Below, piece after piece: positions 227 through 2,191 of a stretch of 64,000 bases of DNA. The notes below the pieces were generated by a model. It saw only the letters and a program-made list of their open reading frames with translations. It ran no database searches and was not told where the DNA came from. Each line of letters opens with the position of its first letter. The stretch's first letter is position 1. Source of the stretch: Massalongia carnosa (Eukaryota); contig OZ287078.1 of NCBI GenBank assembly GCA_965645245.1, forward strand, positions 1 through 64,000. Direction: 5' to 3'. Position numbers and translations under genes: made by a program.

Positions 227-1469
227 ATGGCAAACTCTACAGAACCAGAGAAGTATCAAGTACTTGAGAAGATCGGTATGAATCACTCCTCATCACCATA
301 CTCATTCATATCTTCTGAGAATTAATGTTCTTCAGGTCATGGTTCTTTCGGTATTATCAGAAAAGTAAAGAGAGAGTCTGACGGTCATGTATGCATCTTC
401 AGGCTGCATAGCTCCTTCATGCAGCTGCTGACGTGCGCATTCACTAGATCCTCTGTCGCAAGGAGATCAGCTATGTCAAAATGTCATTAAAAGAACGAGA
501 GCAACTGCATGCTGAGTTTTCAATTCTAAACTCTCTGCGACATCCAAATATTGTCGCCTACTATCATCGTGAGCATCTTAAGTCGACGCAAGACCTTCAC
601 ATCTATATGGAATTCTGCGGAGGAGGAGATCTAAGTCAGGTCATAGACAAGCTTCGGAGAAACAATCAATACGCGGAAGAGTCATTTGTGTGGAGCATGT
701 TCTCTCAGCTTGTTACAGCGCTTTACCGGTGTCACTATGGAGTTGATGCGCCGGAAGTCGGAAAGAATGTTACGGGACCTATTACTTCTAGCCATACGTC
801 CGGTCTACGACCAAAGAATCAGGTCATGATTTTGCACCGTGACTTGAAGCCCGAAAATGGTAAGCTACGGCCCATGTTACCGTACGATTCCTTATGATAC
901 TGATTGTCGTAGTTTTCCTTGGCGCGGACAATTCAGTGAAGCTAGGTGACTTTGGATTATCCAAGTTGATGCAGTCTCATGATTTTGCGTCAACCTATGT
1001 TGGAACGCCATTTTACATGTCGCCTGAGATCTGCGCTGCAGAACGGTATACCCTCCAGTCTGACATTTGGTCATTGGGCTGTATCATGTACGAACTATGT
1101 GCAAGAACACCTCCTTTCAATGCCAAAACCCATTTTCACCTTGTTCAGAAAATCAAAGAAGGCCGGGTGGAGCCGTTGCCGAGTCTCTACTCTCAAGAAC
1201 TTCAGGCTGTAATCAAGAGTTGTCTGAAAACTAATCCAACCAATCGACCGGATACAGCGTGTCTACTTAATCTACCTATGGTGAGGCTGATGAGAAAAGA
1301 GAGAGAGGTGGTAGAGCTTGGAAAGACGCTCAAGTTGAAAGAAGAGCATACCACGATGAAGACATTGGAAGCTGAAGCCAAGTGTGCAAGCATTGAGGCA
1401 GAGAAAGAGAAAATGAGGGTCAGCATTGAATCCACTGTCAGACGAGAATGGGAGGTCAAGGCCCGCTAA
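227..1469 (+). CDS. nimA: NIMA/NEK-family G2/M serine/threonine kinase, C-terminally truncated (~356 aa)
   Basis: Exons 227-275, 336-388, 448-859 and 913-1469 with GT..AG introns give MANSTEPEKYQVLEKIGHGSFGIIRKV..ILCRKEISY..HRDLKPENVFL..DFG..YVGTPFYMSPE..RREWEVKAR, typical of fungal NIMA. The TAA stop (1467-1469) is supplied by the telomeric repeat. Confidence 0.93.
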
Positions 1470-1634
1470 CCCTAACCCTAACCCTAACCCTAACCCTAAC
1501 CCTAACCCTAACCCTAACCCTAACCCTAACCCTAACCCTAACCCTAACCCTAACCCTAACCCTAACCCTAACCCTAACCCTAACCCTAACCCTAACCCTA
1601 ACCCTAACCCTAACCCTAACCCTAACCCTAACCC
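1466..1634. repeat. Telomeric repeat tract (CTAACC)~28, i.e. TTAGGG on the minus strand; internal in this assembly
   Basis: Perfect hexamer array of ~169 bp with the C-rich strand on +. Confidence 0.99.
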
Positions 1635-2191
1635 CAGTGTAGCGAGGTATTCAGTCGGAGGTAACCTTCCATCACTAGGTAGTGGTGACGGCGAAATGAA
1701 GCTACATAGCCTGAGGCATGTAGTGAGGGATCTAGCCGGGGGTAGAATTGTTCTACCTTGCAAGGGAAGATCTAGAAGGCTGCTCGAGGCTGACTAGATG
1801 ATCCAGCGAACGCCGAGTTCGTGGATGGATCCTGAGGGATGGTTGGATGTAATGCGATAAAGTCGGATGTGGATTGCAAGGCTGTAATGCTCGCAAGACT
1901 CCCAAGGCTTGCAAGGCTCCCAAGGCTATAGGCTTGGGGTGAGTAGGATAAATATCAGAACGAATCTTGTAGTATTCGTTAGCAATTAGTCTTTATTCTA
2001 TGAACAACCTACGTTTGGGTCTCGGACGAGATCTCTTGGTCTAAGCACTTCCACATCCATTAGTTCTTGGGATCACGTATACTCTCGGAGACTAGCACGT
2101 AGTAGCTATCTTCCTCCTCTCACGCTGAGCATTTCCCCTTTCGAGATCAGTGTCGCTCGTGATAAGCTTACTGGTCTCGTAGCCCATTACA
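1635..2191 (+). mobile_element. 5'-truncated LTR of family X (solo or 3' LTR)
   Basis: Aligns with ~34882-35641 (gaggtaaccttccatc..gcgaaatgaagctacatagcct..ctggtctcgtagcc(c/t)attaca). Ends in CA, lacks the first ~450 bp of the LTR, and is not followed by the X internal sequence. Confidence 0.88.

Follow-up and report, generated by a model that had tools for sequence, protein, structure and literature searches.

Near the start of the 64,000 bases of DNA analysed here (hereafter the window; Massalongia carnosa, contig OZ287078.1), the 5' part of a nimA-like mitotic kinase gene is joined directly to the outer tip of a complete telomere. We conclude, with a probability of about 85%, that this is a technical join and not a feature of the chromosomes of the fungus. 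Most likely a chimeric long read has been left as a 1.5-kb overhang beyond the true chromosome end. The observation is confirmed in the sequence; as biology the feature is most probably not real. The doubt concerns the existence of the join in the organism, not its presence in the record.

Gene fragment, telomere tract and junction

The foreign piece comprises positions 1-1465 of the window. Its first part (1-226, + strand) begins at the window start, represents the 5' flank or leader of the gene and has no letter that differs from the contigs of runs X2, X3 and X4 discussed below. The 5' part of the gene itself follows at 227-1466 (+ strand) and was assigned to nimA/NEK ('G2-specific Ser/Thr kinase') from Pfam matches, relatives at 81-99% identity and a splice model. 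The gene model starts with the ATG at 227 and has exons at 227-275, 336-388, 448-859 and 913-1466, separated by three GT..AG introns of 60, 59 and 53 nt. The resulting 356 codons are free of internal stops; they span the whole kinase domain and the start of the coiled-coil region and are cut in the middle of an exon after ..WEVKAR. Pfam Pkinase (PF00069) matches two exon translations (E=4.4e-27 for the last exon and 2.2e-10), and the HRDLKPEN and DFG motifs are present in the kinase translation. The top named relatives, at 81-83% identity, are 'G2-specific serine/threonine protein kinases' of lichen-forming Lecanoromycetes, which identifies the window as DNA of a lichen fungus. With a Ser/Thr catalytic domain and NIMA-type orthologues the fragment qualifies as a NIMA/NEK kinase.

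In Aspergillus nidulans NIMA the kinase domain is followed by a coiled coil and two PEST sequences used in proteolysis, according to the available text of PMC8999480. A long C-terminal regulatory tail is likewise found in the orthologue P0122, described below. In contrast, the window copy ends after 356 codons inside the coiled-coil region and the whole tail is missing; the C-terminal coiled-coil/regulatory tail is present in P0122 and in other orthologues. A tblastn search with full-length relatives gave no match to the 3' half of nimA in the 64-kb window, in agreement with the initial annotation, which had noted its absence. The loss of the tail in the window copy belongs to the join and not to the gene of the organism.

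Tandem Repeats Finder reports a single array of (CTAACC)28.2 at 1466-1634, with period 6, 100% matches and 0 indels. The C-strand lies on the + strand, as it does at a left chromosome end, and 28 repeats are a normal full telomere length in a filamentous ascomycete. A regex scan of the 64 kb for other (CCCTAA)n or (TTAGGG)n runs of at least 2 units found none. The reading frame stops as ..REWEVKAR at 1466 and the first telomere unit provides the TAA stop at 1467-1469. The junction falls within about 1465-1469, with no spacer between gene and tract. This is also how the initial annotation had described it: a nimA frame running to ..WEVKAR and continuing directly into about 28 perfect CTAACC units. 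Chance would not put a perfect 169-base hexamer array exactly where an exon is broken. There is no N gap in the window and the join is clean in the record; a join made during Hi-C scaffolding was rejected on the absence of such a gap. Physically, the join lies at the point where a complete telomere, oriented as at a chromosome end, has its tip; TE-rich subtelomeric DNA follows on the right.

It might be thought that telomerase had capped a break in nimA and that the gene fragment is a new chromosome end. As in de novo telomere addition, the gene is truncated exactly where the telomere array starts, and nothing beyond this adjacency of gene and repeat speaks for healing. However, a healed end would show TTAGGG on the + strand after the gene and then nothing, whereas here the + strand carries CCCTAA, reversed relative to a healed end, and a further 62 kb of DNA lie beyond it. 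Both properties led us to reject healing, which we regard as having practically no chance of being correct. They equally bear out the reading already given in the initial annotation, that CCCTAA on + after the gene marks the outer tip of a left chromosome end and not telomerase healing.

The uninterrupted gene in protein collections and run contigs

The closest protein in a collection of 5.8 billion clusters, P0002, is 99% identical, derives from a Logan contig and reads WEVKAR-LEIDRQLQ... across the break. Another member of its cluster, P0122, is encoded on a 605,212-base contig of an ENA assembly. P0122 is identical to the last exon of the window (915-1466) at 184 of 184 residues and continues past the break, again as WEVKAR-LEIDRQLQ..., for 343 further residues to the conserved C-terminus (..PSPFLVRGGRGLRRL) that is common to the named lichen NIMA orthologues. 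From this identity and this continuation it follows that an assembly of the same species has an unbroken nimA; the intact locus is known from it as the P0122 protein, not as DNA.

The start of P0122 repeats the in-frame intron read-through of the window ORF 894..1469. Since the gene caller used the same start for P0002 and P0122, an assembly in this collection that bears the junction would probably yield the truncated product. The exact product of the truncated 191-aa last-exon ORF (894-1466) is missing from a collection of about 15 billion proteins, and this argues weakly against the presence of the junction in the assemblies represented there. The exon-3 ORF was found in the same 15-billion-protein collection (Logan and ENA), the longest contig on record again being 605,212 bases. 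Its contig count is 1 beside two sources (Logan, ENA) and may be incomplete; a count of 1 is a weak indication that there is no second nimA copy. Two further searches addressed the junction itself. The exact 26-base pattern just before the junction had 0 matches in JGI metagenome contigs. A search of the protein collection with residues 1-45, encoded by the subtelomere, of the minus-strand ORF across the junction (1272-1763) gave no candidate; such an ORF need not be called.

A search of public runs with window 1-1465 found five runs from three studies that contain sequence of it. Runs X2 and X3 (one sample) and X4 (a second sample with the same organism label) contained all sampled words, X1 had a share of 0.75, and X6 and X7 had a share of 0.00. 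Contigs were compared with window 1-1489 for X2, X3, X4 and X5, the last carrying a second organism label; X1, X6 and X7 were left out. All sequences compared are Logan (de Bruijn) contigs, and X2-X4 are only probably the source library of the record.

In X2 and in X3 a contig of 16,098 bases matches window 1-1458 and has at least 2,095 bases beyond 1458. The X4 contig (2,454 bases) matches 246-1458 with 1,241 bases beyond 1458, and the X5 contig (265 bases) matches 1281-1458 with 87 bases beyond. Up to 1458 all four contigs agree with the window with 0 other letters and 0 gaps. In X2/X3 the contig extends to the left of window position 1 as well; its overhangs are 2,095 and 12,545 bases, the latter lying to the left of position 1 if the minus-strand record is numbered in its own orientation.

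The length of these continuations is informative. Within the contig file of a Logan run all 31-mers are distinct, and singleton k-mers are discarded (available text of PMC12424806). A perfect hexamer array consists of only six distinct 31-mers, and one Logan contig can therefore fit about 36 array bases at most. Past 1458 the window has 7 unique bases and then the 169-base array, so that a Logan contig following the window would reach its limit after about 43 bases (7+36). Under the rule of distinct 31-mers all four contigs, which run more than about 43 bases past 1458, must therefore diverge from the window. Given P0122, the contigs would most simply be read as running on into the remainder of nimA. 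The initial annotation had named reads continuing into an intact nimA among the observations that would speak against a real join, and at the level of contigs this is what we found.

No contig breaks at 1466 in any of the four runs compared (0/4), with 1459-1489 masked as a repeat and singleton k-mers dropped by Logan; within the masked stretch 4 loose ends were dropped without display. The X4 graph does keep a branch at 275, with a depth of 54 versus 892. That it shows no break at the junction while keeping a branch of depth 54 suggests that the junction form is not abundant. De Bruijn contigs lose rare variants, and a minority junction or one present in a single individual could be missed. 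Depth is given as one mean per contig and is blind to a double copy of the 5' half.

The X4 branch extends over 246-275, in exon 1 and just before its 3' end at 275. It is a 59-base record that leads to other sequence, with a loose end at 275; X5 has a loose end at 271. The branch may represent a minor variant, another genotype within the thallus or a related organism that was sampled with it.

The same contigs bear on the possibility that nimA was interrupted by insertion of a telomere-bounded segment and that its 3' half follows past the other end of that segment, outside the window. The one point in its favour is that this 3' half is missing from the window. However, the run contigs and the independent assembly carry nimA uninterrupted across the break, the inserted piece would need to exceed 62 kb, and the window holds no second, oppositely oriented telomere tract. 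We therefore consider such an insertion very improbable.

Origin of the join

The locus copied by the foreign piece exists intact at another place in this organism, as seen in P0122 and in the X2, X3, X4 and X5 contigs. We infer the following steps from a chimeric molecule to an overhang retained at the start of the contig. The CCCTAA tract of 169 bases, together with the DNA that follows it, would be a genuine left chromosome end, and the 1,465 bases before it would stem from the normal, unbroken nimA locus at another place in the genome. A molecule that ends at the chromosome tip has a free DNA end. When the library was prepared or bases were called, this end may have become attached to the sheared end of another, unrelated molecule, through insert-to-insert ligation or because two molecules were read as one. 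The resulting read would have the form [random fragment][complete telomere][subtelomere]. Inside chromosomes true reads would outvote such a chimeric read; past the telomere there would be no true reads to compete with it, and the assembler would retain the overhang, ~1.5 kb long, at the contig start. A less likely technical route, for which the same picture would be expected, is that a record ending in nimA and a separate record that opens with its telomere were concatenated with no gap between them.

An origin from a chimeric read would account for the main properties of the join. The foreign piece would meet the outer tip of a perfect full-length telomere because this was the free tip in the chimeric molecule, and the cut would fall arbitrarily in mid-exon because the join was made to a sheared end. 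The foreign piece would be located at the very start of the window because the overhang was retained at the contig start. The fragment would show zero divergence from the true locus over 1458 bases, introns included, because it is a copy of that same locus. As to position, the junction lies 1.5 kb from the first base of the window, for which the chance is about 2% in a randomly placed 64-kb window; it would be expected if the window starts at a contig end.

Several of these properties are shared with chimeric long reads at contig ends: foreign DNA identical to a locus that exists intact at another place, a join that links the chromosome tip, a natural DNA end, to an arbitrary break, and a join without support in the run contigs examined. 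Chimeric reads are routinely filtered before telomere analysis or T2T assembly (PMC12871981, PMC7619369). The available text of these papers differs from our case in that it describes general filtering and not the exact pattern of sequence beyond the telomere. Among the publications listed in a literature search, none was relevant by title or abstract to assembly sequence beyond a telomere that arises from chimeric reads.

The initial annotation had preferred a different reading, namely that a broken nimA was ligated in vivo to the tip of another chromosome. It found no support: the assembly of the same species has the gene intact and the contigs of all four runs (4/4) outrun the sequence that the window permits. 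Its fallback, an assembly misjoin, is the one favoured by the intact nimA in P0122 and by the diverging run contigs. In a broader form, a real event in vivo would involve a duplicated nimA 5' fragment or a broken chromatid that was end-joined to the deprotected full-length telomere of another chromosome. It might be subclonal, with intact nimA persisting. We regard such an event as unlikely. The clean join in the record with no N gap is in its favour, and a real event of very recent date would likewise be compatible with a perfect tract of full length. Contigs are moreover unable to show the absence of rare variants, and lichen thalli can carry more than one fungal genotype.

However, a fusion in vivo implies a junction in the DNA of the organism and a broken locus that is lost or duplicated, whereas the locus is continuous in all four runs and in the ENA assembly. 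Intact nimA is found at full contig depth in all runs of the first organism label, with no contig break at 1466. The fragment and the locus are without sequence differences, the truncated ORF occurs in no other assembly of the protein collection, and a duplication at equal copy number would have branched the graph at the junction. The position of the junction at the window start would be left unexplained. Fusion of a centromere-bearing piece would in addition give a dicentric chromosome. It would be unsafe to add that nimA is essential and hence unbreakable in this fungus, because yeast NIMA orthologues are not essential (available text of PMC8999480).

Interstitial telomeric sequences that derive from telomere fusions, for example the head-to-head tract at human 2q13, usually consist of two inverted arrays that are shortened and degenerate. 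Like them, the tract in the record has repeats flanked by non-telomeric DNA on both sides. In contrast to them, it is single, perfect, of full length and placed at a gene break, and the runs carry the gene unbroken.

If the join is an artefact, as we believe, the record should be trimmed at ~1465 and the chromosome end annotated as terminal. Trimming would keep a spurious truncated mitotic-kinase gene and an 'interstitial telomere' out of annotations and comparative studies. A general trap might be involved here: chimeric reads survive preferentially past telomeres because true reads do not compete there. Slightly less probable again than a real event in general is the specific case that the join is real in the sequenced thallus, with a recently duplicated nimA 5' fragment end-joined to a full-length telomere tip, an intact telomere buried and a tail-less NIMA kinase gene created. 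If true, it would show directly, as is rarely possible, a telomere-to-break fusion that is still fresh and whose telomere is unshortened, caught in progress in a lichen fungus, and would bear on the failure of telomere protection in fungi. The product would be a tail-less NIMA (kinase domain and partial coiled coil) that ends at the TAA provided by the telomere itself and is without the C-terminal degradation region. Tail-less NIMA is stabilised and toxic.

Transposon-rich DNA inside the telomere

The sequence adjacent to the telomere (1635-2600) consists of a repeat, a microsatellite and C/T-rich low-complexity DNA. The repeat at 1718-2191 occurs again at 35000-35641, 86-95% identical and immediately upstream of an ORF for a MULE transposase (36081-37352). 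It appears that the chromosome end abuts a fragment of a Mutator-like element rather than unique subtelomeric DNA. An ATCCTC microsatellite with 13.8 copies (2269-2351), an 18-base repeat and a C/T-rich stretch (2200-2600) lie 0.6-1 kb inside the telomere, and the GC skew of 2001-4000 is -0.385.

The remainder of the window (2601-64000) was characterised by a Pfam scan of 27 ORFs, self-blastn and a repeat search as a transposon-rich subtelomeric region. Retrotransposon or transposase Pfam domains were found at E<=1e-5 in 17 of the 27 ORFs of at least 200 aa, which agrees with the 62 kb of TE-dense DNA initially described after the tract. The types include Ty3-type, Ty1/copia-type, LINE-like RT, MULE, Tc1/mariner and hAT-like (DUF659) elements. 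By self-blastn there are six LTR-like direct repeat pairs with 98-99.4% identity (3536/25903, 5062/11705, 13885/22249, 26195/34365, 44303/49435 and 49839/55519). The wider pair 3536/25903 would enclose 5062/11705 and 13885/22249, and Ty3-type pol ORFs reach up to 1188 aa. This points to nested retrotransposon insertions in 3536-34527 that are young and have decayed little by mutation.

By exact look-up, five of six transposon ORFs of the window are missing from the protein collection. The MULE transposase (36081-37349, 423 aa) has an exact match on a 2,110,715-base ENA contig and falls in a 90% cluster with 62 members over contigs of 1.2-3.8 Mb; it is an active-looking multi-copy family, and a match to such a family does not place the window. 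Inverted copies at 36868-39277 and 62200-63924, ~97-98% identical, overlap the 3' end of the MULE ORF and about 1.9 kb downstream of it. At 58433-61466 two adjacent minus-strand ORFs (361 and 535 aa) each carry HTH_Tnp_Tc3_2 and DDE_3 domains and are tandem or nested Tc1-like elements. Three further long open frames in or beside LTR elements, at 18734-21790, 24101-25612 and 9365-10888 (1018, 503 and 507 aa), have no Pfam match at E<=1e-5 and presumably encode divergent gag-like or accessory proteins.
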